Below, piece after piece: positions 1,542 to 45,671 of a DNA stretch of 64,000 bases. The translations under genes and the position numbers were made by a program. This DNA comes from Patescibacteria group bacterium (GTDB lineage Bacteria; Patescibacteriota; Patescibacteriia; UBA1558; GWA2-36-10). The stretch's first letter is position 1, and each line of letters starts with the position of its first letter. The notes beneath the pieces are model-generated. The model was given only the letters and a program-made list of their open reading frames with translations, was not told the DNA's origin and did no database searches. The DNA is taken from positions 136,080 to 200,079 of the forward strand of contig JBAZKN010000001.1 of assembly GCA_041650755.1 (NCBI GenBank), read 5' to 3'.

Positions 1542-4313
1542 ATGGGAATTTTGCAGAAGATATTTGGCGATGCCAATCAAAAATACATCGACAGCCTCAA
1601 GCCTCTAGTCAAACAAATCAATGACCTGGAGCCGACTTTGGAAAAATTATCCGATCAGGAGCTCAAAGAAAAAAGCTTGGCTCTAAAAGCAGAGGTACAG
1701 GCCGGTAAAAATCTGGATGATGTCCTGGTGTCGGCTTTTGCTTTGGTTCGAGAAGCAGCCAAACGCACCCTCAAACTGCGCCATTTTGATGTCCAACTTC
1801 TTGGTGGCATAGTATTGCATCGCGGCCAGATTGCTGAAATGAAAACCGGTGAAGGCAAAACCTTGACTGCGCCACTGGCCCTTTATCTCAATGCTTTGTC
1901 AGGCAAAGGCGCTCACTTAGTAACAGTTAATGACTATTTGGCTAAGCGCGACGCTACTTGGATGGGCCAAATTTATCATTTTTTGGGCTTAACAACGGCC
2001 GCCATCCAGCACGAGGCTTCTTTTATCTATGATCCGACTCATACTGGCGAACAAAAAGATGAATTGCGTGATCGGGGCGTCAAAGTAGTCATGGATTATC
2101 TACGGCCAGTCACTCGCCAAGAAGCCTATAGCGCTGATATTACCTATGGCACCAACAATGAGTTTGGTTTTGACTATTTGCGCGACAATATGGCTCAAGA
2201 TGCTACTTATCAAGTGCAGCGCGGTTTGCACTATGCCATTGTCGATGAAGTGGATAGCATTTTGATTGATGAAGCTCGGACGCCTTTGATTATTTCTGCG
2301 CCAGCCGAAGAATCAACCAGTCGCTATCAACAATTTGCTCTACTAATAAGCAATCTGCAAGAAAATACCGATTATAATATTGATGAAAAAATGAAGGCCG
2401 CCACCCTGACTGAAGAGGGCATCAAAAAGATGGAAAAGCTCCTGGGTGTCGATAATATTTATGAAAGCCACGGCTTGGACATAGTCCATCATCTTGAGCA
2501 GGCCTTGCGAGCCAAGACTTTGTTCATTCGCGATCGCGACTATATCGTACGCGATAACGAAGTAATCATCATCGATGAATTTACCGGCCGGATGATGCCC
2601 GGGCGCAGATACAGTGAAGGCTTGCATCAGGCTATTGAGGCCAAAGAAAATGTGGAAGTGCAAAGAGAAAGTATGACTTTAGCTACCATTACTTTCCAGA
2701 ATTATTTTAGGATGTATGAAAAACTTGCTGGTATGACTGGTACAGCGGCTACTGAAGCCGAGGAAATGGCCAAAATTTATAATTTAGATGTCACTGTCGT
2801 CCCAACCAACAAGCCATTTATCAGGGCCGATCTAAAAGACAGAGTCTATAAAAATGAACGCGGCAAATACAAAGCCATTGTCCAAGAAATAGAAACTTTG
2901 CACAAAAAAGGTCAGCCGGTTTTGGTTGGCACTATTTCCATAGAAAAAAATGAGCTCCTGGGCTCATACTTAGAAAAGGCCGGTATACCTTTCCAACTCT
3001 TGAATGCAAAATTCCACGAAAAAGAAGCTGAAATCATCGCTCAAGCCGGCCGCAAAGGAGCAGTCACCATTGCCACCAATATGGCTGGACGTGGCGTTGA
3101 CATCATCTTAGGCGGTGCACCGTTTAATCAAGCTTCCTACGAGGAAATAAAGGCTTTAGGCGGCCTGCATATCCTGGGCACCGAGCGACATGAGTCACGT
3201 CGCATTGATAATCAGCTAAGAGGTCGAGCTGGCCGTCAAGGCGATCCGGGCTCTTCTCAATTTTATATTTCCATGGAAGATGACCTGATGCGCATATTTG
3301 GTTCGGAACGCATGAAAGGCATGATGGAGCGCCTGGGCGTACCAGATGACATGCCAATAGAAAATCAGCTGATTTCCAATTCCATTGAATCTGCCCAAAA
3401 GAAAGTGGAGGGCCATAACTTTGATATCCGCAAACACTTAGTAGAGTATGATGATGTTATTAATAAACACCGTCAGGTAATCTACAAACTGCGGCAAAAT
3501 ATCCTGGATATTTTTAGGGAAAAATCCGATAAGCCTGCCGAACAATCAAGCCAGGACATTATTCTTGATTATGTAAACCAGGAAATTCAAAATGTGATTT
3601 CTTTTCACACTTTGAGTCAAAAAAATGTCGGTGATTTTAATCCCAAAGAAATCATTGAAACTATAAAATCTATTTTCCCTTTGAGCACGGATGAGGAAAA
3701 CAAAGTCCTAGAGCTTTTGGATAATAACAAAAAAAATAATTCACATGCTGAGCGCAGCGAAGTGATTGATTATCTGGACAGTCTGGCTAAAAATAAATAT
3801 GAAATTTTAGAAAAAGAAATAAATAGCCAGGTGACTTTGGAAAACTCAGCTTGGACGCCGATGCAGATGATCGAACGCGGGATTATGCTGCGCAGCATCG
3901 ACACGCTCTGGGTGGAGCATCTGACCTCTATGGACAAACTGCGCACCGGCATCGGTCTGCAAGGCTATGGCCAGCGCGATCCGCTGGTAGAGTACAAGCG
4001 CGAGGCTTTTGGCTTATTTAATACTTTGATGGCTGCCATTCGCCAGCAAATAGTCTATTCTGTGTACAAGATTGGCATTGCCCGCAAAATGGCCGCTCCT
4101 GGACAACAAAGACAGCGCCAGTTTACTGAGCAAAAAGCCGGCTTCCAGCCATTCCAAAAAGAAGTAAAGGACAGAGAGCAGGCTAATCAAATATTGCCAT
4201 CGAAGCCCAGAGATGCTTCTGGGCACAAGATAGGCCGCAATGATCCTTGTCCTTGTGGAGCTAAGACAAAAGACGGTATGCCAATAAAATATAAGAATTG
4301 CCATGGAAAATAA
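1542..4313 (+). CDS. secA: preprotein translocase ATPase SecA
   Basis: 923 aa, DEAD-like motor motifs, C-terminal zinc-binding CPCGAK...C. Confidence 0.95.
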   Translation: MGILQKIFGDANQKYIDSLKPLVKQINDLEPTLEKLSDQELKEKSLALKAEVQAGKNLDDVLVSAFALVREAAKRTLKLRHFDVQLLGGIVLHRGQIAEMKTGEGKTLTAPLALYLNALSGKGAHLVTVNDYLAKRDATWMGQIYHFLGLTTAAIQHEASFIYDPTHTGEQKDELRDRGVKVVMDYLRPVTRQEAYSADITYGTNNEFGFDYLRDNMAQDATYQVQRGLHYAIVDEVDSILIDEARTPLIISAPAEESTSRYQQFALLISNLQENTDYNIDEKMKAATLTEEGIKKMEKLLGVDNIYESHGLDIVHHLEQALRAKTLFIRDRDYIVRDNEVIIIDEFTGRMMPGRRYSEGLHQAIEAKENVEVQRESMTLATITFQNYFRMYEKLAGMTGTAATEAEEMAKIYNLDVTVVPTNKPFIRADLKDRVYKNERGKYKAIVQEIETLHKKGQPVLVGTISIEKNELLGSYLEKAGIPFQLLNAKFHEKEAEIIAQAGRKGAVTIATNMAGRGVDIILGGAPFNQASYEEIKALGGLHILGTERHESRRIDNQLRGRAGRQGDPGSSQFYISMEDDLMRIFGSERMKGMMERLGVPDDMPIENQLISNSIESAQKKVEGHNFDIRKHLVEYDDVINKHRQVIYKLRQNILDIFREKSDKPAEQSSQDIILDYVNQEIQNVISFHTLSQKNVGDFNPKEIIETIKSIFPLSTDEENKVLELLDNNKKNNSHAERSEVIDYLDSLAKNKYEILEKEINSQVTLENSAWTPMQMIERGIMLRSIDTLWVEHLTSMDKLRTGIGLQGYGQRDPLVEYKREAFGLFNTLMAAIRQQIVYSVYKIGIARKMAAPGQQRQRQFTEQKAGFQPFQKEVKDREQANQILPSKPRDASGHKIGRNDPCPCGAKTKDGMPIKYKNCHGK

Positions 4314-9130: not shown

Positions 9131-9672
9131 AAGCTAGAGTAAAAGACTTTGATCAAGTAATTGCTAAATTGCGTGATCTTGGCTGTGAAATAACAGAGCC
9201 GATTATTCAAGACGATAAGATATTTGTTCATAAAGATTATGGTGATTATGTGAAACTGCATATTGGCTCAAATGTTTTAAGAATACGCACCGTTAACAAT
9301 GAAAAATCTTTTTTTACATTAAAACAATCTGTAAAAAATGAGCTTGACTGCATAGAAAAACAGACCGAAGTAGCTAAGCCCCAAGAAATGCACGATGCCT
9401 TAATAATGATGGGCTATGAAAACGTTGTTTCAGTTTATAAGAAAAGACAGAAAATAAAATATCAAGACTACACCATATGCCTTGACCAGGTCAGGGATTT
9501 GGGAAATTTTATTGAAGTGGAAAGATTATTTGAAGATGATAAAGAGGCGAGTGGAATACAAGAAGAAATATTTGAGTTTTTAGAAACTCTAGGCGTTGAA
9601 GAGCAAGACAGAGTAACACACGGCTATGATACTTTAATGTATTTAAAATTAAACAATAAAATTAACAATTAA
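9109..9672 (+). CDS. CYTH domain protein (class IV adenylate cyclase / triphosphate tunnel metalloenzyme)
   Basis: N-terminal EIEVKARV (ExExK) signature. Confidence 0.65.
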   Translation: MAREIEVKARVKDFDQVIAKLRDLGCEITEPIIQDDKIFVHKDYGDYVKLHIGSNVLRIRTVNNEKSFFTLKQSVKNELDCIEKQTEVAKPQEMHDALIMMGYENVVSVYKKRQKIKYQDYTICLDQVRDLGNFIEVERLFEDDKEASGIQEEIFEFLETLGVEEQDRVTHGYDTLMYLKLNNKINN

Positions 9673-9685
9673 TCAATTAACCATT

Positions 9686-10081
9686 ATGTCGTATCAAAAA
9701 AACATTTTAGAAGCAACCAAAAATAACACAAACTTTCGCACAGTATTATTTACCGGCAAAAAAAGCCAACTAGTCGTGATGGACATTAAACCGGGCGAGG
9801 AGATTGGTTTGGAAACCCATGACAATGTAGAACAAACTCTTTTTTTCTTGACTGGTACAGGGAAAGCCGTTCTAAACGGCCAAGAATCAGTGGTCAATGC
9901 CGGCGATGCAGTGATAGTCACGCCTGGCACAGCCCACAATTTTATCAACACCGGCACGGAAACTTTGAAAGTTTATACTATTTACGCTCCAGCTAATCAT
10001 ATTGATGGTCGCATACACAAGACTCCGGCCGATGCTCAGGCTGATGAAGAGGATGAAGACTTTGGACACGGTGTGAAGTAA
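9686..10081 (+). CDS. cupin domain protein
   Basis: G(x)5HxH..E and GxxxH cupin motifs (GLETHDN, PGTAHNF). Confidence 0.6.
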   Translation: MSYQKNILEATKNNTNFRTVLFTGKKSQLVVMDIKPGEEIGLETHDNVEQTLFFLTGTGKAVLNGQESVVNAGDAVIVTPGTAHNFINTGTETLKVYTIYAPANHIDGRIHKTPADAQADEEDEDFGHGVK

Positions 10082-37617: not shown

Positions 37618-39052
37618 CCCTCTTTTTTAAAGCCGACTTTAAGTACTGCCAATCGGCCTTACCAATATTGCCAAAAATTATCATTAATAATAGATATGTG
37701 ATAATAGCTAAAGCAATATTTATAAATACTGATACCAGATCGCTCATACTCCAAACAAGTAAGGCCATCAGACCGGCAGCAATAATGCTCAATAATACCG
37801 GCCGCCAAACGGAAAATCCCAATTTTATGACTTGACAGACAGCTGTTAAATTTAAAATGAACAGCAAAATTGTGCTTAGTGAAGAGGCTAGACTGGCACC
37901 TACTGCCCCCCAAGATTTGAGTAAAAACAAATTCAATATAATATTGCTGAGCATGACTAAACCCAAGTTGCGGGTATTGATAATCTGTCGGTCAGTAGCA
38001 TTGAGAAAGTATGACAAGGCAAAATTAACAAACAAAAACGGCAAACTTAAAATCAATATTTGCAAAGGTAAAATAGAATTTAAATAATGAACCGTATAAA
38101 GCTTGGTGATGATCACGCCCCCTAGGCTGGTAATGCCCAAGGCTATCGGCCAAGCTATAAAAGACAAATAGTGTATTGCCTTGGTCAGAGCTTGAGCCAA
38201 GCGATCCTTATCGTTTTGCCAATAATGCGACAAGGCCGGATACAGAGCTGCCACAAAAGCCAGAGGTATAAACTGAAAAGCAAAAGTAATTTTGTAAGCT
38301 ACGCTATAATAACCTAATTGCGTTGCGCCCCGCATACCCTCTAGCAACAAGCTGTCTATATAGGCGTAAATCTTGGCAAAGACAGCCGATAAGGCAAACG
38401 GCCAGGTGATTAAAAAGATTTCCTTAACAAATGGCCTATCCAAATATAGCTTGAGTCGCAGATGATATTTTTTGAATAACAAATAAGCTGAAAAAATAAG
38501 ATTAAAGGTGCTGGCTGATAAAATGACCAGAATAAAAGGATAAAGCTGGCTATTGAAACGCATTACCAGCAAACCGGCAATCATAATAATTAGCTGAAAG
38601 AGCATGGTGCCGATTGACTCATAAAACAAATTCTGTCGGCCACGAATAAAACCGTAAAATGTCAAAGTAAAACTATCAATAATAACTATCAAAGTAGTTA
38701 AATAAATCAACGGTCGCACAATATTATTGGCATACAGTAGCCAATCCAAACCAATAATAATAATTGCCGTCAATAAACCCAGGATTAGTTTCAGAGAAAA
38801 AATTTGGCTGAATAATCTATGCTCATCAATCTGCTTTTTGGCAATTTCTCTGATTAAGACGGCTGACAAGCCAAAATCACTAATCACTGACAACATCATG
38901 GCAAAACTGAGTGCTAGCTGATATTGGCCGTAGTGGGTCGGCCCCAAATGCCTGGCTAGTAAAGTAAAATAAATAAAAGAAAAAAGCTTTTGGATAATCA
39001 AAGCCAATAAGTACCAGGTAGTATTGGAGGTGATTTTTTGACCAGTCACCAT
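37604..39052 (-). CDS. oligosaccharide flippase (Wzx/MOP superfamily)
   Basis: 12-14 TM, polysaccharide biosynthesis protein-like N-terminus. Confidence 0.6.
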   Translation of the reverse strand: MVTGQKITSNTTWYLLALIIQKLFSFIYFTLLARHLGPTHYGQYQLALSFAMMLSVISDFGLSAVLIREIAKKQIDEHRLFSQIFSLKLILGLLTAIIIIGLDWLLYANNIVRPLIYLTTLIVIIDSFTLTFYGFIRGRQNLFYESIGTMLFQLIIMIAGLLVMRFNSQLYPFILVILSASTFNLIFSAYLLFKKYHLRLKLYLDRPFVKEIFLITWPFALSAVFAKIYAYIDSLLLEGMRGATQLGYYSVAYKITFAFQFIPLAFVAALYPALSHYWQNDKDRLAQALTKAIHYLSFIAWPIALGITSLGGVIITKLYTVHYLNSILPLQILILSLPFLFVNFALSYFLNATDRQIINTRNLGLVMLSNIILNLFLLKSWGAVGASLASSLSTILLFILNLTAVCQVIKLGFSVWRPVLLSIIAAGLMALLVWSMSDLVSVFINIALAIITYLLLMIIFGNIGKADWQYLKSALKKRGGDA

Positions 39053-39102
39053 GAGCTCATTATAACAAAATGTTTAGCTTTTTACCATACCCATAAACAC
39101 CA

Positions 39103-39132
39103 AAAAACCCCGTAAAATAAGGGTTTTTTTAT
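39103..39132. terminator. bidirectional intrinsic terminator AAAAAACCC-loop-GGGTTTTTTT
   Basis: Read directly downstream of rpsI. Confidence 0.6.
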
Positions 39133-39175
39133 AAAAAATAAATTTTGCTTTTGGATTTTTTGGATATTTCGCAAA

Positions 39176-39583
39176 CTAGCGTTTGCTCCATTGTGGAGCA
39201 CGGCGGGCTTTTTTCAGACCCGGTTTCTTTCTTTCTTTGATGCGGGAATCTCTAGTCAATAAGCCCTCTTTGCGTAAAGTAGTGCGTAAATTTTCATCCA
39301 TCTCAACTAGAGCTTTGGCAATTGCATGTTTGATGCTATCCACCTGGCCACGAATACCACCGCCCAAAACTCTGATAGAAACAGCTATCTTGTCTTTGCC
39401 TACAGCTCTTAGAGGGTGCAGGATCATTTCTTGCCACTCAAAATAGGGAAAATATTCTTTAAAATCTTTACCGTTGATGGTAATTTTGATCTCATTGACT
39501 TTTTCCGGCAAAAGCCTGGCTCGGGCAATAGCGGCTTTTCTCTTGCCAACAGCGTGGATATATTTGGGGCTTGCGTGTACCAT
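39176..39583 (-). CDS. rpsI: 30S ribosomal protein S9
   Basis: GKRKAAIARARL ... KKARRAPQWSKR. Confidence 0.9.
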   Translation of the reverse strand: MVHASPKYIHAVGKRKAAIARARLLPEKVNEIKITINGKDFKEYFPYFEWQEMILHPLRAVGKDKIAVSIRVLGGGIRGQVDSIKHAIAKALVEMDENLRTTLRKEGLLTRDSRIKERKKPGLKKARRAPQWSKR

Positions 39584-39588
39584 AATAA

Positions 39589-39936
39589 TTAGCTAATAGT
39601 TAATCTTTTTAACATCTTTGGTCTTAATTTGTTTTTGGGCAGCATATTGTATACTGTCTTGCGCAAAACTTCGGCCGGGTTTGAGGCCATCAAGTCTTTT
39701 AGCTTGGTAGTGCGAATACCGCCCGGATACATGGTGGTACGATGATAGACTTTGCTGTCCAATTTGTTTCGAGAAAATTTGAGGCCTTTAATATTGCTTA
39801 CTTCTACATAGTCACCGCAATCAACATGCGACTGGTAACTCGTCTTATTTTTGCCTTGCAATAAAATAGCAATCCGGGAAGCCAGTCTTCCGGCAATTTG
39901 TCCATTAGCATCAATTTGATGTATCTTTCTTTCCAT
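39589..39936 (-). CDS. rplM: 50S ribosomal protein L13 (short form)
   Basis: L13 family N-terminus; position upstream of rpsI. Confidence 0.8.
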   Translation of the reverse strand: MERKIHQIDANGQIAGRLASRIAILLQGKNKTSYQSHVDCGDYVEVSNIKGLKFSRNKLDSKVYHRTTMYPGGIRTTKLKDLMASNPAEVLRKTVYNMLPKNKLRPKMLKRLTIS

Positions 39937-39940
39937 ATAT

Positions 39941-39984
39941 ATTTGCTTATGTCAATAGCTTATAGCATATAGCAATTATGCTTG
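39941..39984. repeat. heptad tandem repeat ((T)ATAWGC / CCATAWG-type) filling rplQ-rplM spacer
   Basis: GCTTATGTCAATAGCTTATAGCATATAGCAATTATGCTTG read directly. Confidence 0.6.
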
Positions 39985-40335
39985 TTAAACTAATTCTATT
40001 TGAGCCAAAGGCGCTCCATCGCCCTGACGCTGATGCATCTTGATAATACGGCAGTAGCCACCTTTGCGATCTTTATATTTAGGCCCCAGAACATCCAAAA
40101 TCTTTTGCACGGCTTTTTTATCATGCAAAAATCTGCCTAATTGCTGCTTGGTGTGGACAGATTTGACTTTGCCTTTGGTTATCAATCTCTCAACTTTTGG
40201 CTTAACAGTTTTAGCTTTGCTTTCAGTAGTCACTACTTTTTCATACAAAATAACCGAAGTGACCAAGTTGTCGAGCAAAGCTCGACGCGGGCCGGTCAAA
40301 CGTCTTAATTTTTTACCTACTTTGCGGTGTCTCAT
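39985..40335 (-). CDS. rplQ: 50S ribosomal protein L17
   Basis: MRHRKVGKKLRRLTGPRRALL. Confidence 0.9.
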   Translation of the reverse strand: MRHRKVGKKLRRLTGPRRALLDNLVTSVILYEKVVTTESKAKTVKPKVERLITKGKVKSVHTKQQLGRFLHDKKAVQKILDVLGPKYKDRKGGYCRIIKMHQRQGDGAPLAQIELV

Positions 40336-40344
40336 GGCAATAAA

Positions 40345-41115
40345 TTATTTAGTCTTTTTAGCGCGAGTGGCTCTTTTCTTGGGAGCGGCCGGAGCTTCGC
40401 TATCAACTGCCGCCTCCTCTGACTTGCTTTCTTCGCCAATCAAAAATTCAAAATGATCTTTCAAAATCTGAGCGGCTCTGGTCACAGCTTGGCGACCATC
40501 AACAGTACCATCAGTCACAATATCCAAAGTTACCTTTTCATAGTTGGTCATTTCGCCGACGCGGACATTGACCATTTCGTAGCCGACGTTTAGTACCGGA
40601 GAAAAGCTGGCGTCAATGGCAATAGTGCCAATGGGCAATTTTGATTTGTCGCCGCGTTGTTCGACAGTCACATAACCCAAGCCCTTATCAACGGTAATTT
40701 CCATATTAAATTTGGCCTGCTTGTCGGTCAAAGTGGCAATCACCAAATCAGTATTGATGATTTCAACAGCTGAATTTTTTTTGATATCAGCTGCTGTCAC
40801 TACTTTTTCACCCTTGGCCTCAATGGTCAAAATGGTTGGCTCATCAGCAAAAAGCTTCAAGCGCAATTTTTTCAAATTCAACATTATTTCCACCAAATCT
40901 TCCTTGACGTGATCAACTGAATCAAATTCATGTTGGGCGCCTTCAATCTTGAAGGAAGTCACGGCTGCTCCGGGCAGAGCCGACAACAATACCCGGCGCA
41001 AAGAATTACCTAAAGTAACGCCAAAACCAGGATAGCAAGGCTCAATCACTACCGTGTAGTGATTATCCCCCTGATCATGGACACTAATTTTTTCTGGTAA
41101 TGTAATTTGGGTCAT
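40345..41115 (-). CDS. rpoA: DNA-directed RNA polymerase alpha subunit, N-terminal domain only (256 aa, no alpha-CTD)
   Basis: alpha-NTD motifs; ends in Lys/Ala-rich tail instead of ~80-aa CTD. Confidence 0.85.
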   Translation of the reverse strand: MTQITLPEKISVHDQGDNHYTVVIEPCYPGFGVTLGNSLRRVLLSALPGAAVTSFKIEGAQHEFDSVDHVKEDLVEIMLNLKKLRLKLFADEPTILTIEAKGEKVVTAADIKKNSAVEIINTDLVIATLTDKQAKFNMEITVDKGLGYVTVEQRGDKSKLPIGTIAIDASFSPVLNVGYEMVNVRVGEMTNYEKVTLDIVTDGTVDGRQAVTRAAQILKDHFEFLIGEESKSEEAAVDSEAPAAPKKRATRAKKTK

Positions 41116-41171
41116 GTTTTTATAAATAAATTTTTATTTTAGTTCCGCTTTCAGCAGAGTAAAATTTAAAA

Positions 41172-41786
41172 TTAACGTGAATAAAAGTCAACAATTAGGT
41201 TGGTAGCGATATTCTTGGGCAAATCGCTGCTATTGGGCAAACTGTTGACGGTGATGCTGAAATTCTTTTTATCCAAAGTCAACCAGCCGGCTGATTCTAC
41301 TTTTTCTATTTTTTCGGCCATATTTTTCCAATAGCCCTTATTGACTTTATTCTCTTTGACTTTGACTACCTGTCCGGGTCTGACTGGAAAAGATGGGACA
41401 TCTACCTTTTTACCATCAATGGTGAAATGGCCATGATTTACCAATTGTCTGGCCAAACGTCTGGTCTGAGCCAGGCCGGAACGGAAAATGACGTTATCCA
41501 AACGGGTTTCTAAATTAATCAAAAGATTTTCACCCACATCGCCGGTCATTTTTTTGGCGCGGTTGAAAGTCAATAAAAATTGTTTTTCCAGCAAACCATA
41601 AATCGCTTTGGCTTTTTGCTTTTCCAAAAGCTGTTTACCATATTCGGAGGTTTTGCTGAATGTTTTTTTTGGTCCGTGGACACCAGCCGGATAATTGCGC
41701 TTGGCTAAAGGAGACTTCAAAGTATCGGCAACGTTTTCTCCGAATCGGCGGCTAGCTTTATGTCTTGGCTCTAGATTTCTACCCAT
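41172..41786 (-). CDS. rpsD: 30S ribosomal protein S4
   Basis: S4 N-terminus and S4 RNA-binding domain. Confidence 0.9.
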   Translation of the reverse strand: MGRNLEPRHKASRRFGENVADTLKSPLAKRNYPAGVHGPKKTFSKTSEYGKQLLEKQKAKAIYGLLEKQFLLTFNRAKKMTGDVGENLLINLETRLDNVIFRSGLAQTRRLARQLVNHGHFTIDGKKVDVPSFPVRPGQVVKVKENKVNKGYWKNMAEKIEKVESAGWLTLDKKNFSITVNSLPNSSDLPKNIATNLIVDFYSR

Positions 41787-41793
41787 ATAAATT

Positions 41794-41856
41794 GCTTATG
41801 GCTTATGGCCTATAGCTTATGGCATATGGCATATGGCCACAGGCTATAAACCATAT
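41794..41856. repeat. heptad tandem repeat (CCATAWG)n in rpsK-rpsD spacer, abutting rpsD start
   Basis: TTATGGC TTATGGC CTATAGC TTATGGC ATATGGC ATATGGC read directly. Confidence 0.65.
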
Positions 41857-41878
41857 GTGTTTAATTATAAAATATTAA

Positions 41879-42262
41879 TTATACCCTTCTAGTTTTCTTA
41901 GGACGACAACCATTATGTGGAATTGGCGTCATATCTTTAATAGAAGTAATAGTCAAACCTTGGCTATGCAAAGCACGAATAGCTGCCTCGCGACCAGCTC
42001 CAACGCCCTTGATAAAAACATCAACCTCGGCCAAACCATAATCTTTGACCTTGTCTATGGCACTTTTCACAATAATACCAGCGGCATAAGGAGTGGCTTT
42101 TTTGGGGCCCTTGAAGCCGTTTAAACCAGCTGAAGACCAAGCCAAAACATTGCCCACCGGATCAGTCAAAGTTACCATGGTATTGTTATAAGTAGCCTGG
42201 ATATGGGCCTGACCTTTTTTGACTATCTTTTTTACTTTCTTTTTAGATTTTACTGCTTTCAT
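41879..42262 (-). CDS. rpsK: 30S ribosomal protein S11
   Basis: S11 family; C-term PKKTRRV. Confidence 0.9.
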
Positions 42263-42274
42263 ATAAACTCTGCT

Positions 42275-42664
42275 TTAGGTTTTTTGAGCGGCTGGCGCCC
42301 GGCCACTGCCCATAGTGACACGCTTGTTACCACGCACAGTGCGAGAATTTGTCTTGGTGCGCTGACCGCGTACTGGCAAACCCTTGGTGTGCCGCACGCC
42401 GCGGTAACACTTGATTTCGCGCAAACGCTTGATGTTGGTCATACGCTCACGGCGCAATTCGCCTTCAACTCGATAATCTTTTTCAATCTTTTGGCGTAAG
42501 CGATTTACTTCCTCTTCAGTAAGATCTTTGACCCTGGTATCGGGATTGATCTTCAGGCTGTGTAATATCTTTTGGGAAGTAGACAGGCCTAAACCATAAA
42601 TATAAGTAAGAGCAATCTCTGCCCGCTTATTGTTTGGTAGGTTGACTCCAGCAATTCTAGCCAT
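42275..42664 (-). CDS. rpsM: 30S ribosomal protein S13
   Basis: [11 protein letters not shown]-terminus. Confidence 0.9.
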
Positions 42665-42711
42665 CTTATTAATTTAATTGATAATTGTTAATTGGTAATT
42701 GATCTATTTTA

Positions 42712-42825
42712 TTAGCCTTGTCTTTGTTTGTGCTTAGGGTTTTTACAAATACAAACTACCCGGTTTTGACGCCGGATTATTTTACAATCTTTGCAAATCT
42801 TTTTTACCGATGACCTAACTTTCAT
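42712..42825 (-). CDS. rpmJ: 50S ribosomal protein L36 (37 aa; below ORF-track cutoff)
   Basis: Manual translation [37 protein letters not shown] with CxxC...CxxxH zinc ribbon. Confidence 0.85.
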
Positions 42826-42867
42826 CTTGTTAGAAATTTACTTATTAAATTTTACTGCTCAAGTAAT

Positions 42868-43104
42868 TTATTGTCTAAATATGATCCGGCCCTTACTCAT
42901 GTCATAGGGGCTCATTTCTACCAGCACTTTATCGCCCGGCAAAATCCTGATCTTATACATGCGCATTTTACCGGAAAGGTGAGCCAAAATTTCGTGGCCG
43001 TTATTTAGAACGACCTTAAAATTTGCATTGGGCAACAGCTCTGTCACCTCGCCATCGATCTCTAAAAAACCCTTTTTATTGACCTTAGCTTGATTTTCCG
43101 CCAT
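42868..43104 (-). CDS. infA: translation initiation factor IF-1
   Basis: S1-like OB fold, 78 aa, canonical IF-1 sequence. Confidence 0.9.
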
Positions 43105-43213
43105 TCTAATAACAAAAAAATGAATTCACTATATAATAATGAAGATTATATAATATTTTGGCTTAAATTACCAAAAAACTCACTATAATTAAATGTTTAA
43201 TTAACGCCCCTAT

Positions 43214-43241
43214 ATTATACAGATTTTTTTCTATTTGTCAA
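43214..43241 (-). promoter_or_regulatory. near-consensus sigma70 promoter TTGACA-16-TATAAT for infA-rpmJ-rpsM operon
   Basis: Read directly on minus strand. Confidence 0.6.
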
Positions 43242-43247
43242 CGATTT

Positions 43248-43303
43248 ATGGCGTATGGCATATAGCTTATGGCATATAGCTTATGGCATATGGACAATGG
43301 GCA
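43248..43303. repeat. heptad tandem repeat (CCATAWG/CTATATG)n immediately upstream of infA promoter -35
   Basis: GGCGTATGGCATATAGCTTATGGCATATAGCTTATGGCATATGGAC read directly. Confidence 0.65.
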
Positions 43304-43329
43304 TTAATTAAATTACGAATTTTGGTTTA

Positions 43330-43356
43330 TATTTTGGCTAATATTAGCCAATAAAT
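43330..43356. terminator. palindrome TTGGCTAATATTAGCCAA (second copy) overlapping murB stop; probable terminator
   Basis: Identical 18-bp palindrome to 24917-24934. Confidence 0.45.
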
Positions 43357-44264
43357 TGTATCTCTTCCTGTAGCTGAATACCATATTTATCCCTAATCTG
43401 CTGCTTGATAAAGCTAATCAGCATAATCACCTGTTCGGCTGTTGCTGTACCGGTATTAATAATATAATTAGCGTGAATTTTGGAAACTTGCGCTCCGCCA
43501 ATCGTATGCCCTTTGAGACCGGCTATATCAATCAAATAAGATGCCGGGATCTTTTTATTTTGTTCAAATTTTTCTATATCTAAACCGCGGTTTTTTAGCT
43601 TAGCCAAATCAACTGTGCTGAATTCAACATTTTTAAACACACAGCCAGCTGATGGCTCTCTGGGCTGAGTACCTTGGCGATATTTTAATCTTTCATTGAC
43701 TAAATTTTTGGCTAGCGTCAAATCCCCTTTTTCCAGCTTTAATTTAGCTTCTATTATTATGGCCTTAATTTCTTTGAAGATACTATGGCGGTAAGTAAAA
43801 TGACAATCGCTGCCCTGACAAATTTTCAGCTGATAATTTTCATCAAAATAAGTGATCTCCTGAACTACATTGGACATAGCCAGGCCATAAGTACCGGCAT
43901 TGCCTCTGATAGCACCACCAACTGTGCCGGGCACGCCAGCTATAAATTCTAAACCCGTCAGACCCTGCTCTAAGGATTTATTTAATAGATAGGCAAGTAA
44001 AACTCCGGCGCCAACCACCACCTCTTGATCATGATACTCTAATTTTTGCAAATCAAGCTTGATAACCAAGCCCCTAAAGCCCTGATCTGAAATTAATAAA
44101 TTACTGCCTCCGCCCAAAGCCAAAATCGGTATTTTCTTGTCTTGGGCAAATTTAACAGCTTCTTGCACTTCTTCTTTGGTCATTGCTACGACAAAATAAT
44201 CTGCCGGGCCGCCAATTTTAAAAGTAGTGTAGTCCTTTATTAATATATTTTGCTTTATTTCCAT
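43344..44264 (-). CDS. murB: UDP-N-acetylenolpyruvoylglucosamine reductase
   Basis: FAD-binding N-term GGGSNLL; MurB C-terminal domain. Confidence 0.85.
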   Translation of the reverse strand: MEIKQNILIKDYTTFKIGGPADYFVVAMTKEEVQEAVKFAQDKKIPILALGGGSNLLISDQGFRGLVIKLDLQKLEYHDQEVVVGAGVLLAYLLNKSLEQGLTGLEFIAGVPGTVGGAIRGNAGTYGLAMSNVVQEITYFDENYQLKICQGSDCHFTYRHSIFKEIKAIIIEAKLKLEKGDLTLAKNLVNERLKYRQGTQPREPSAGCVFKNVEFSTVDLAKLKNRGLDIEKFEQNKKIPASYLIDIAGLKGHTIGGAQVSKIHANYIINTGTATAEQVIMLISFIKQQIRDKYGIQLQEEIQFIG

Positions 44265-44303
44265 ATATTATTTTTTATGACTTTAAACTTGCTAACTTTC
44301 AAA

Positions 44304-45671
44304 CTACTTAGCCAGCTCGCGAGCTAAAGTATCAATATCGCCCGCGCCGATAAACAAAATCACTGCTTTGCTTGGATTAATCTGACGCAAAACTTTTTTG
44401 ATATCAGTAGTTTTTGGCGCATAATTAACCGGCGCATCCTTTATAAGGGCCACCAGATCCTGGCTGGAAACAGCCTCGTGCGCCTTGTCTTCCCGGCCAG
44501 CCACTTGATAAATATCAGTAATCACTACTTGATCTGCTTGCCTAAAACTAGCGGCAAATTCATGGAGCAGTGTCTGGGTGCGATTATGATGATGGGGCTG
44601 AAAAATAGCAATTATTTTTTTATTTGGATAAAATTCTTTTGTTGCTTGGAGTAGTCCCCGTATAGCATCCGGATGATGAGCATAATCAGAAATAATAATA
44701 TTGTTTTTCCATTGACCGACTGGCTCAAATCTGCGCCAGATGCCGCTAAAATCATGCAGGGCATTCCAGATTTGATGCTTGTTGATGCCTAAAGTGTCAG
44801 CCACAGCCACGGCTTGCAGGGCATTGTAAATATTATAGATGCCTGGCACAGCCAAATCAAAATCCGCTAAAAGTTTACGCTGATGATTGACGGAAAAATG
44901 CTGCTGGCCAGCTTGGCTAACTGGCGCTGAAAAATTATAATGAGCCGAATTTTCCCGGCCAACAGTGATGAGCTTGCCCGGCCAAACAATAGAGCGGCTG
45001 TTTTTATCGTCAGCATTTTTGACCAGCCAGCCGCCTTTGGGCAACTTATTGACGAACTTTTGAAAATGCTTTTTGATGTCACTTAAATCCCGAAAATAAT
45101 CCAGGTGATCCTCGGCAATATTGGTCAAAACTATGATCTGGGGATTTATCTCCAGCATATGCGCTTGCCACTCGCAAGCCTCAACCACCAGCCACTCACC
45201 CCTGCCAAAGCGAAAATTACTGCCCCACTGCGGCACCAGGCTGCCGACAATGACCATTGGGTCAAGACCGGCTTTTTCCATGATAAGACCTAGCATAGCT
45301 GTAGTGGTGGTCTTGCCATTAGTGCCGGCAACAGCGATGGTTTTATATTGTTTGCTCAAATAGCCTAAAAATTCAAAATAGCTTAAAACCGGAATTTTAA
45401 GTTTGCGGGCTTTTAAAAACTCCGGATGATCATCGGGCAGAGCTGAAGTATAAACAAACAAATCAATGTCGTTCGTAATATTGCTAGCTTTTTGCTTATA
45501 GTCCACCAGCACTCCCCGCTCTTCCAGTCGCCTGGTCACTTCGGATTTAAACAGATCAGAGCCCAGCACCTGCTTTTGCAATTGCAAAAAATAATAAGCC
45601 AGAGATGACAAACCAATGCCACCAATGCCGGATAGATAAACTTTATTTATTTTTTGGATGTCTAGATTCAT
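44304..45671 (-). CDS. murC: UDP-N-acetylmuramate--L-alanine ligase
   Basis: GIGGIGLS and GTNGKTTTTAM Mur ligase motifs. Confidence 0.9.
   Translation of the reverse strand: MNLDIQKINKVYLSGIGGIGLSSLAYYFLQLQKQVLGSDLFKSEVTRRLEERGVLVDYKQKASNITNDIDLFVYTSALPDDHPEFLKARKLKIPVLSYFEFLGYLSKQYKTIAVAGTNGKTTTTAMLGLIMEKAGLDPMVIVGSLVPQWGSNFRFGRGEWLVVEACEWQAHMLEINPQIIVLTNIAEDHLDYFRDLSDIKKHFQKFVNKLPKGGWLVKNADDKNSRSIVWPGKLITVGRENSAHYNFSAPVSQAGQQHFSVNHQRKLLADFDLAVPGIYNIYNALQAVAVADTLGINKHQIWNALHDFSGIWRRFEPVGQWKNNIIISDYAHHPDAIRGLLQATKEFYPNKKIIAIFQPHHHNRTQTLLHEFAASFRQADQVVITDIYQVAGREDKAHEAVSSQDLVALIKDAPVNYAPKTTDIKKVLRQINPSKAVILFIGAGDIDTLARELAK

Follow-up and report, generated by a model that had tools for sequence, protein, structure and literature searches.

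Seven-base repeat arrays between ribosomal protein genes of a Patescibacteria group bacterium: candidate copies of a dispersed intergenic element

Introduction

Arrays of a seven-base unit occupy several gene junctions in a 64,000-nucleotide stretch of the genome of a Patescibacteria group bacterium (GTDB lineage Bacteria; Patescibacteriota; Patescibacteriia; UBA1558; GWA2-36-10; NCBI GenBank assembly GCA_041650755.1, contig JBAZKN010000001.1, positions 136,080 to 200,079 of the forward strand). This whole stretch is called the window below. The first-pass annotation placed three such arrays in a block of ribosomal protein genes: in the rplQ-rplM spacer (A1), in the rpsK-rpsD spacer (A2) and just upstream of the infA promoter (A3). 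Are these arrays control sites of the translation genes that they adjoin, or DNA of another kind? In this study, we conclude with moderate confidence that they are copies of one lineage-specific, dispersed intergenic element of seven-base units, of a known class. The element is not conserved in relatives, is not restricted to translation genes and is not a known leader. Statements on its distribution rest on sampled loci and about 92 kb of the source genome.

Intergenic heptamer repeats are already known as a class. Heptamers are over-represented among the simple sequence repeats (SSRs) of bacterial intergenic DNA, mostly with four units and sometimes or often as inverted pairs, and they change in length and sequence from one close relative to the next even where they keep their position (Rehm 2015, PMC4692102). 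The passage of that paper which cites Mrazek 2007 puts the excess down to slippage. In marine Beggiatoaceae, TAACTGA repeats stand in forward orientation just upstream of start codons that lack a ribosome-binding site (RBS), including those of S4, L3 and S1 in ribosomal protein operons, and they also occur in some cyanobacteria and Bacteroidetes (MacGregor 2015, PMC4679880). In Nostoc, heptamers are found near start codons and promoters (bioRxiv 10.1101/2022.06.06.494920).

Results

Three arrays of one unit

Tandem repeats in the 64-kb window were called with Tandem Repeats Finder (TRF). All three arrays read CYATAWG (CCATAWG or CTATAWG) on the minus strand, the strand of the genes. A2 (41787..41878, minus strand; TRF, pattern scan and RNA fold), which corresponds to the 92-nt rpsK-rpsD spacer, is the best copy of the element. 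TRF reported period 7 with 6.3 copies and 86% matches at 41794-41837, and also a 21-nt unit present twice. The transcript of A2 reads as a 5' arm CAUAUGGUUUAUAGCC, a turn UGUGG and a 3' arm composed of CCAUAUG, CCAUAUG, CCAUAAG, CUAUAGG, CCAUAAG and CCAUAAG. A3 (43244..43300, minus strand; TRF, scan and alignment) comprises about seven heptads, with 4 nt between its end and the downstream -35 hexamer of the infA promoter; TRF gave period 7 with 6.7 copies at 43247-43293 and, at 100% matches, a 14-nt unit CCATAAGCTATATG in 2.7 copies. Apart from this perfect unit, the match percentages of the arrays were 77-86%. A1 (39937..39984, minus strand; TRF and scan) is a decayed copy in the 48-nt rplQ-rplM spacer, with 3-4 recognisable units (CTATATG, CTATAAG, CTATTGA, CATAAGC); 9 nt separate its end from the rplM ATG. 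TRF found just 2.9 copies there (39955-39974, score 33), and A1 is weak enough that it would not stand alone as an array. The first-pass count of five to eight units in each array is too high for A1.

A two-unit pattern GCWTATGGCWTATRG, allowing up to 2 mismatches, matched the window 14 times against 1.37 expected, a number reached in none of 100 shuffles, and 12 of the 14 matches fell inside A1, A2 or A3. A three-unit scan gave no comparable array in the rest of the 64-kb window. The existence and places of the three arrays were thus confirmed by TRF and by both scans. Checked against the gene map, every CYATAWG copy found sits in a spacer, outside the open reading frames (ORFs), in agreement with the earlier statement that the arrays are confined to non-coding DNA. 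That the window holds no further arrays is correct for the CYATAWG unit, but two arrays of another type, both detected by TRF and both oriented along their downstream gene, had been overlooked. One, (TCAATTA)4 between rpmJ and rpsM (42675..42703, minus strand), belongs to a second heptad family, stops 10 nt before the rpsM ATG and has a folding energy of 0 kcal/mol. The other is a related AATTAAC/CAATTAA array (9643..9686, plus strand), which is unstructured, overlaps the end of the CYTH gene and finishes at the ATG of a cupin gene.

The perfect 14-nt unit of A3 (2.7 copies) and the doubled 21-nt unit of A2 indicate recent duplication. The source genome is a metagenome-assembled genome. Between two assemblies of it (ENA ERZ27247363 and Logan SRR8542065), which possibly derive from the same data, the arrays are 100% identical, and array copy number did not differ among the recovered contigs. 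The proposal that these are slippage-prone contingency repeats does not fit: a change in copy number would alter neither a reading frame nor the spacing between -35 and -10, the repeats are imperfect and the two assemblies agree.

The Logan assembly breaks inside rpmJ (window 42713-42742), a few nucleotides from the TCAATTA array, where its contigs L203 and L001 overlap by 30 nt; homologues of the PF05635 genes described below often lie on very short contigs. The break in rpmJ and the short PF05635 contigs suggest that heptad arrays fragment short-read assemblies.

A fourth copy and a shared architecture

A fourth copy was found about 4.5 kb past the window end (contig L204, 5611-5694). It fills the entire 84-nt spacer, equal to 12 heptads, that separates the gene of a family-2 glycosyltransferase from that of an NAD-epimerase; this sugar-epimerase gene lies in a glycosyltransferase cluster. 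About 92 kb of the source genome thus contain at least four copies, three in the infA-rpsI region and one before the epimerase gene. The roughly 8.4 kb beyond the other window end carry tRNA genes and no array. The first-pass statement that the arrays occur only at translation-gene junctions is accordingly true inside the window and fails shortly outside it.

A2, A3 and the L204 copy can be aligned beyond the repeat unit. Their common layout begins with a 5' arm of (GCWTATR)2, GCTTATAGC..., continues through a turn GCCYRTKG to a 3' arm of (CYATAWG)4-7, and ends with about 10 AU-rich nucleotides and the start codon. A3 is a 5'-truncated version of this layout, which retains the turn motif GCCCATTGTCC and has neither a 5' arm nor a predicted hairpin, and A1 is a short, decayed copy.

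Structure prediction for the rpsD and rplM leaders, which had been proposed earlier, gave a hairpin for the former only. For the A2 RNA, the prediction is an imperfect stem with about 23 bp (-28.5 kcal/mol, z = -3.3; 1 of 200 shuffles was as good). The predicted hairpin spans 41797-41855 and leaves the final 10 nt (CAAUUUAU...) before the rpsD AUG unpaired. The L204 copy likewise has a predicted hairpin of about 20 bp (z = -3.5) with unpaired nucleotides before the start codon. A1, which forms the rplM leader (z = +0.5), and A3 (z = +0.8) are both unstructured.

Relatives with the same gene order

A protein-guided scan recovered 22 family-level loci, with S4 proteins 69-81% identical to that of the window. 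All 22 have the order murB-infA-rpmJ-rpsM-rpsK-rpsD-rpoA-rplQ-rplM-rpsI, and CYATAWG arrays were present in none of these syntenic loci. Between rpsK and rpsD they mostly have 7-35 nt, and between rplQ and rplM mostly 10-22 nt, again without CYATAWG arrays. The infA promoter is kept, but the sequence upstream of it is an unrelated A-tract instead of A3.

S4 and L13 are autoregulators in model bacteria, and two of the arrays stand directly upstream of rpsD and rplM. If the arrays were operators of these proteins, translation would be repressed by S4 at the rpsD leader and by L13 at the rplM leader. Rfam detected no ribosomal protein leader, either in an E-value scan of 38000-45000 or in a gathering-threshold scan of the whole window, and no other known RNA family in either range. 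Despite highly similar S4 and L13, 22 of 22 relatives lack the arrays, the element also occurs upstream of the infA promoter and of the epimerase gene, and it does not resemble an rRNA binding site. The absence of an Rfam leader together with the absence from relatives rules out conserved S4 or L13 operators, and we regard autoregulatory operators for S4 or L13 as extremely improbable here.

A different heptad element, whose 5' arm is (AGTAGAA)n and whose 3' arm is (ACTTTAT)n, is present in several relatives. It lies between rpsK and rpsD in L122 and L123, between rpsM and rpsK in L123 and between rpmJ and rpsM in L138 and L139; L135 has a similar element between rpmJ and rpsM, and L133 and L138 have short remnants. 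Four copies from three genomes and three junctions (L123:4431-4530, L123:4908-5003, L122:366-462 and L138:4086-4179) align over about 90 nt and fold as hairpins. The stop codon and the next ATG are its exact limits. Inspection by eye suggested a possible TAAT duplication at its ends. In the hairpin, covariation amounted to one compensatory pair, the copies being too alike to test the structure. No mobilising enzyme, such as a transposase or a gene like the REP-associated tyrosine transposase (RAYT), and no clear target-site duplication were identified. Independently of one another, related lineages have thus filled junctions of the same operon with different heptad hairpin elements, which clearly duplicate or move. 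Period 7 was also the commonest tandem-repeat period in these relatives, which had been selected by S4 and not for repeats.

These findings bear on the idea that the arrays are independent neutral microsatellites, arising on the spot by slippage that favours 7-nt units, with neither dispersal nor function. The arrays do contain perfect higher-order repeats, their positions are not conserved in relatives, and slippage is the explanation that PMC4692102, citing Mrazek 2007, relays for the heptamer SSR excess. However, one unit and one arm-turn-arm layout recur at four sites, near-identical 90-nt copies occupy three junctions in relatives, and the complementary arms of A2 and the L204 copy are unexpected from simple slippage. 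The expansions also persist although coding sequence makes up about 94% of the genome. It is unlikely that on-the-spot slippage by itself accounts for the arrays.

Heptad repeats in other genomes

Species-representative genomes were scanned with a three-unit pattern. Matches were found at no fewer than 120 loci in many phyla; the source genome was not among the matches listed, and Patescibacteria contributed 13 of the listed loci. In these 13 loci, CCATAAG/CTATAAG arrays precede rpsG, infC, rubrerythrin, ribE, rfbD, tgt and rsmH, so that, among the matches listed, the arrays of other Patescibacteria are not restricted to translation genes either: rubrerythrin, ribE, rfbD, tgt and rsmH speak against such a restriction. 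Others end 7 nt before tRNA-Trp and 3 nt before tRNA-Gln, and several are inverted pairs with strong predicted hairpins. Within the same listed loci, period 7 accounts for 40 of the 56 tandem repeats with at least 3 copies, with many different units, and 38 of these 40 arrays are intergenic; unrelated control loci held 3 period-7 arrays in 337 kb. The first-pass annotation had reasoned that heptad arrays scattered randomly through intergenic DNA would mark a generic simple-sequence repeat. This is largely what was found, as heptads dominate the intergenic tandem repeats, although a tendency to highly expressed operons remains. Viral contigs gave only 17 array matches, none adjoining an S23p gene, and so no sign of phage carriage.

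The main rival to our reading is that the repeats are platforms for a protein that binds single-stranded RNA with a footprint of about 7 nt (a cold-shock protein, S1 or an S23p-like protein) and tunes translation initiation downstream. MacGregor proposed such a role for TAACTGA repeats (PMC4679880), and their position upstream of the S4, L3 and S1 start codons is a precedent. The distance from the array end to the next start codon is 0-11 nt for A1, A2, the L204 copy and the two TCAATTA-type arrays, all of which are in forward orientation. Of the 38 intergenic heptad arrays in the listed Patescibacteria loci, 17 finish close to a start codon (17 nt or less) or to the 5' end of a mature tRNA (7 nt or less). 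In addition, the genome is essentially devoid of Shine-Dalgarno (SD) sequences: an SD-like motif (GGAG, GAGG, AGGA or AAGG at -18 to -6) precedes 5 of 68 genes, start regions are A/U-rich and many spacers measure only 7-20 nt (e.g. TAATATG). On the other hand, short spacers force adjacency to the start codon, and the arrays are equally close to the upstream stop codon. All genes here lack an SD, so the repeats substitute for none. The unit differs between relatives (CYATAWG versus ACTTTAT) and within the genome (TCAATTA), about 4 of 14 same-unit Patescibacteria arrays among the matches listed are reversed, and A3 lies upstream of a promoter. A binding platform of this kind therefore seems improbable.

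Several narrower ideas were considered and set aside. TATAAG or CATAAG units could be read as -10 boxes of leaderless rpsD, rplM or tRNA transcripts; these hexamers lack the T at -7, they stand at varying distances from the ATG or tRNA 5' end, and neither A1 nor A2 has a consensus promoter. The repeats were rejected as SD substitutes since, with SD-like motifs at just 5 of 68 genes, there is nothing specific for them to replace. The UAG triplets recognised by HutP recur every 7 nt. Triplet arrays of the HutP or TRAP kind were dropped as the units here are mostly UAAG or UAUG, not UAG. The mini-ORFs AUG-CCA-UAA in A2 and A3 are incidental, most Patescibacteria arrays (CTATAAG) having no ATG.

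PF05635 genes between heptad arms

Six of the listed pattern-scan loci contained genes of the PF05635 family (23S_rRNA_IVP, S23p/Avd-like; "23S rRNA intervening sequence"): two from Patescibacteria and one each from Omnitrophota, Nitrospira and the gammaproteobacteria Colwellia and Psychrosphaera. In each of the six, a PF05635 gene is bracketed by heptad arrays of the GCWTATR/CYATAWG type (L035:2540-2955, L088:3275-3720, L103:60-520, L018:3000-3560, L093:1240-1680 and L025:2150-2710). L035 contains a second PF05635 gene, which has no downstream array. The same Parcubacteria contig also bears two identical small GIY-YIG-like genes (L035:3102-3452 and 3561-3911) downstream of tRNA-Trp, and with its two PF05635 genes the locus is rich in small selfish genes.

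To remove the bias of selection by repeats, five further PF05635 loci were sampled by protein similarity alone. Their gene orders are rpsL-rpsG-[S23p]-fusA (L207), SIMPL-[S23p]-eno (L209), rpmG-[S23p]-tRNA-Trp (L212), histidine kinase-[S23p]-response regulator (L215) and [S23p]-tRNA (L217). In all five, heptad repeats run up to the S23p ATG and heptad-like repeats follow its stop codon (L207:1900-2410, L209:1965-2415, L212:1955-2385, L215:1955-2390 and L217:1960-2480), the downstream repeat of L217 being irregular and nearer to a 14-nt spacing. Heptad repeats thus flank both sides of 11 of 12 PF05635 genes from five phyla, five of which were sampled without regard to repeats. Pairing between the flanks mostly exceeded that of shuffled controls, the flank-to-flank duplexes having z values from +1.0 to -5.2 over the 12 genes, with seven at -2.4 or better; the range in the five unbiased loci was -1.1 to -5.2. 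The insertions lie inside operons, for example between rpsG and fusA, rpmG and tRNA-Trp, two tRNA genes, and kinase and regulator genes. The S23p cassettes of Patescibacteria share the polarity of A2, with GCWTATR upstream and CYATAWG downstream running into the ATG of the next gene, and they too occur in translation operons, such as rpsG-[S23p]-fusA.

A similar arrangement is known from the intervening sequence (IVS) in the 23S rRNA of Coxiella burnetii, which has a 28-bp stem of terminal inverted repeats and, before the S23p ATG, two or three tandem GACAGAT heptamers whose number varies between strains; RNase III cleaves this IVS at the first repeat (Warrier 2016, PMC4990558). PF05635 proteins resemble the Avd accessory protein of diversity-generating retroelements (PMC10053308), and rRNA insertions of Patescibacteria either carry S23p-type ORFs or are without an ORF (bioRxiv 10.1101/2024.02.27.582315). 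No paper stating a general association of PF05635 genes with flanking heptad arms was found.

Operon context and the infA promoter

The gene map of the ribosomal protein/infA block agreed with the first-pass annotation. On the minus strand, infA (42868-43104) is followed by rpmJ (42712-42825), rpsM (42275-42664), rpsK (41879-42262), rpsD (41172-41786), rpoA (40345-41115), rplQ (39985-40335), rplM (39589-39936) and rpsI (39176-39583). A sigma-70 promoter of the infA...rpsI operon (43214..43241, minus strand; TTGACA, 16-nt spacer, TATAAT) has 12 of 12 consensus matches, lies directly downstream of A3 and is conserved in the murB-infA spacers of relatives. A sequence scan located a terminator-like hairpin and U-run after rpsI (39102..39129, minus strand), the probable operon end. 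Because promoter and terminator bracket the block, A1 and A2 probably lie within one polycistronic infA-rpsI transcript and A3 upstream of it.

Could A3 act on this promoter, as a transcription-factor array, as a substitute for an upstream promoter (UP) element or as a phase-variable contingency repeat? It stands at about -38 to -95 from a consensus promoter, and its perfect 14-nt repeat is possibly mutable. However, RpoA, of about 256 amino acids with a short Lys/Glu-rich tail, contains only the PF01000 and PF01193 domains and no C-terminal domain of the alpha subunit (alpha-CTD) that could read an UP element, which bears out the earlier doubt about such a role; A3 also has GC in every unit, in contrast to an A/T-rich element at -40 to -60. 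Relatives combine the same conserved promoter with an unrelated A-tract, successive sites 7 bp apart would lie on different helix faces, and the same element is found inside transcripts elsewhere. Copy number leaves the -35/-10 spacing unchanged, and the two assemblies are identical. A regulatory or phase-variable role of A3 is thus very unlikely.

In the relatives L123-L143, homology to the window RpoA stops near residue 225-250 and is followed by K/E-rich tails of variable length. The infA 5' untranslated region (UTR) is about 100 nt long (window 43105-43207). In most relatives it ends in a conserved hairpin and U-run just before the ATG (e.g. L133:3690-3797, z = -2.3), which looks like an attenuator or terminator; this feature is not clearly present in the window. 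A motif TAATATTAGCCAAAA(T/A)AT occurs right after the murB stop codon in the window (43315-43343) and in the murB-infA spacers of L123, L132-L134 and L143, and also upstream of a tRNA cluster of the same genome (L206:6935-6965). A stretch of 830 nt without genes (L206:6912-7741) lies about 2-3 kb ahead of the window. It contains consensus promoters, GC-rich structured segments that end in U-runs, and sequences resembling tRNAs, one of which seems to bear an insertion. It may host small RNA genes.

Discussion

In this study, heptad arrays that had been taken as possible control sites of translation genes appear, on a balance of moderate confidence, to be copies of one dispersed intergenic element, which resembles an IVS element that has no ORF. 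The arrays have about three or more head-to-tail units (2.9 in A1), above chance, and are intergenic, dispersed and lineage-specific, as is characteristic of the intergenic heptanucleotide repeat class (STRR, TAACTGA or GGGAATC type). We propose that they would grow by slipped-strand duplication of 7-, 14- or 21-nt units, a mode suggested by the perfect higher-order repeats of 14 and 21 nt, and would spread to new stop-to-start spacers. They may represent selfish or nearly neutral DNA, tolerated where a spacer can lengthen. Of the roles put forward at first, that of an RNA processing site is the most plausible for the hairpin-forming copy between rpsK and rpsD, and it does not extend to A1 and A3, which have no hairpin. 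By analogy with the heptad stems that bracket S23p/PF05635 genes in IVS elements, the most likely role of the A2 hairpin is that of an RNase III-type site between cistrons, for processing or stability, which would leave the SD-less, AU-rich initiation region of rpsD open. A1 and A3 are probably inert relics with little or no function.

Several observations weigh against this reading. A1 and A3 lack a hairpin, and a stem-based role cannot cover all copies. The likeness of low-complexity arrays can overstate common descent. A tblastn search with three S23p proteins found no S23p/PF05635 gene in about 92 kb of the source genome (the window, L204 and L206), and because of this the link to IVS elements rests on analogy. 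In the infA-rpsI region, 3 of the 7 spacers of at least 30 nt are occupied, compared with 0 of 15 elsewhere in the window (hypergeometric P about 0.02), and selection, not tolerance, could be the reason why three of the four copies cluster in a single operon region of 3.4 kb. In a rough count, the S23p cassettes and solo arrays of other Patescibacteria lie in translation, tRNA and rRNA operons above the typical gene share, and a preference of the elements for highly transcribed operons is plausible.

It is also conceivable, though we hold this only tentatively and think it rather less than likely, that heptad arrays and hairpins are ORF-less derivatives or cis-targets of one widespread S23p/PF05635 system, the window arrays being miniature copies. 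The autonomous form would be an S23p/PF05635 gene, encoding an Avd-like pentameric four-helix-bundle protein, between inverted heptad arms. Cassette and miniatures would colonise the stop-to-start spacers of rRNA, tRNA and ribosomal protein operons, where the arms might form stems cleavable by RNase III, binding targets of S23p, or both. If true, this would account for the long-noted heptamer excess in bacterial intergenic DNA. The bracketing of PF05635 genes by heptads, together with the RNase III cleavage in Coxiella, provides a testable lead on both this excess and the function of the S23p family.

For the window itself the outcome is deflationary, as the arrays are not a new ribosomal protein control system. 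Intergenic heptamer repeats, known since the short tandemly repeated repetitive (STRR) elements of cyanobacteria, are here documented in the alpha-operon region of Patescibacteria. Very small genomes that are about 94% coding tolerate or use heptad elements of 50-90 nt between essential, co-transcribed translation genes, and different heptad families repeatedly occupy the same operon across related lineages.

Comparison with known systems

The arrays share with known ribosomal protein leaders (the S4 alpha-operon pseudoknot and the L13 leader) a position upstream of rpsD and rplM. Unlike these leaders, they have no Rfam match in sequence or structure and no conservation in relatives, and the element also stands at unrelated genes. 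From phase-variable contingency SSRs they differ in lying outside ORFs and the promoter spacer and in the imperfection of the repeats.

Repetitive extragenic palindromic (REP) elements and elements similar to miniature inverted-repeat transposable elements (MITEs) are short, non-coding, multi-copy and lineage-specific, often form hairpins, lie between genes that are transcribed together and can affect the processing or stability of the mRNA. Like them, the element here has multiple copies that can be aligned beyond the unit (A2, A3 and L204, and the 90-nt element of relatives). Unlike them, its arms have an internal 7-nt periodicity and appear to grow by slippage, and neither a transposase nor a RAYT-like gene accompanies it.

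The TAACTGA repeats of Beggiatoaceae (MacGregor 2015, PMC4679880) are similar in many respects. They are 7-nt tandem units, in 2-6 copies and often interrupted by related heptamers, almost all intergenic, mostly forward and a few nucleotides from an RBS-less start codon. They likewise occur in ribosomal protein operons, including upstream of S4, and in one lineage while absent from its close relatives. However, their unit is another one and they include one inverted repeat among 170 sets, whereas two of the four copies here and many Patescibacteria arrays are hairpin-forming inverted pairs, in our case in a host genome of about 1 Mb. The STRR-type and G-rich heptameric SSRs of cyanobacteria and Xanthomonas (PMC4692102) resemble our arrays as an over-represented intergenic class with inverted pairs and turnover, with a modal length of about four units. 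They are G-rich and quadruplex-capable, in contrast to the AT-rich, partly palindromic units (CATATG) of the window, which have no quadruplex potential.

IVS elements with an S23p ORF (Coxiella, PMC4990558) differ from the window copies in location, since the latter lie in mRNA spacers and not in a helix of 23S or 16S rRNA, and the window contains no rRNA. The window copies have no ORF in the loop, although ORF-less IVSs also exist, and two of the four copies (A1 and A3) are without a complementary arm, a stem being confined to A2 and the L204 copy. The predicted stems of A2 and the L204 copy are, like the stem of about 28 bp in Coxiella, built from inverted tandem heptamers. The PF05635 genes of Patescibacteria and four other phyla have GCWTATR...CYATAWG arms of the same polarity as those of A2, and the S23p/PF05635 cassettes sit in rRNA, tRNA and ribosomal protein operons.

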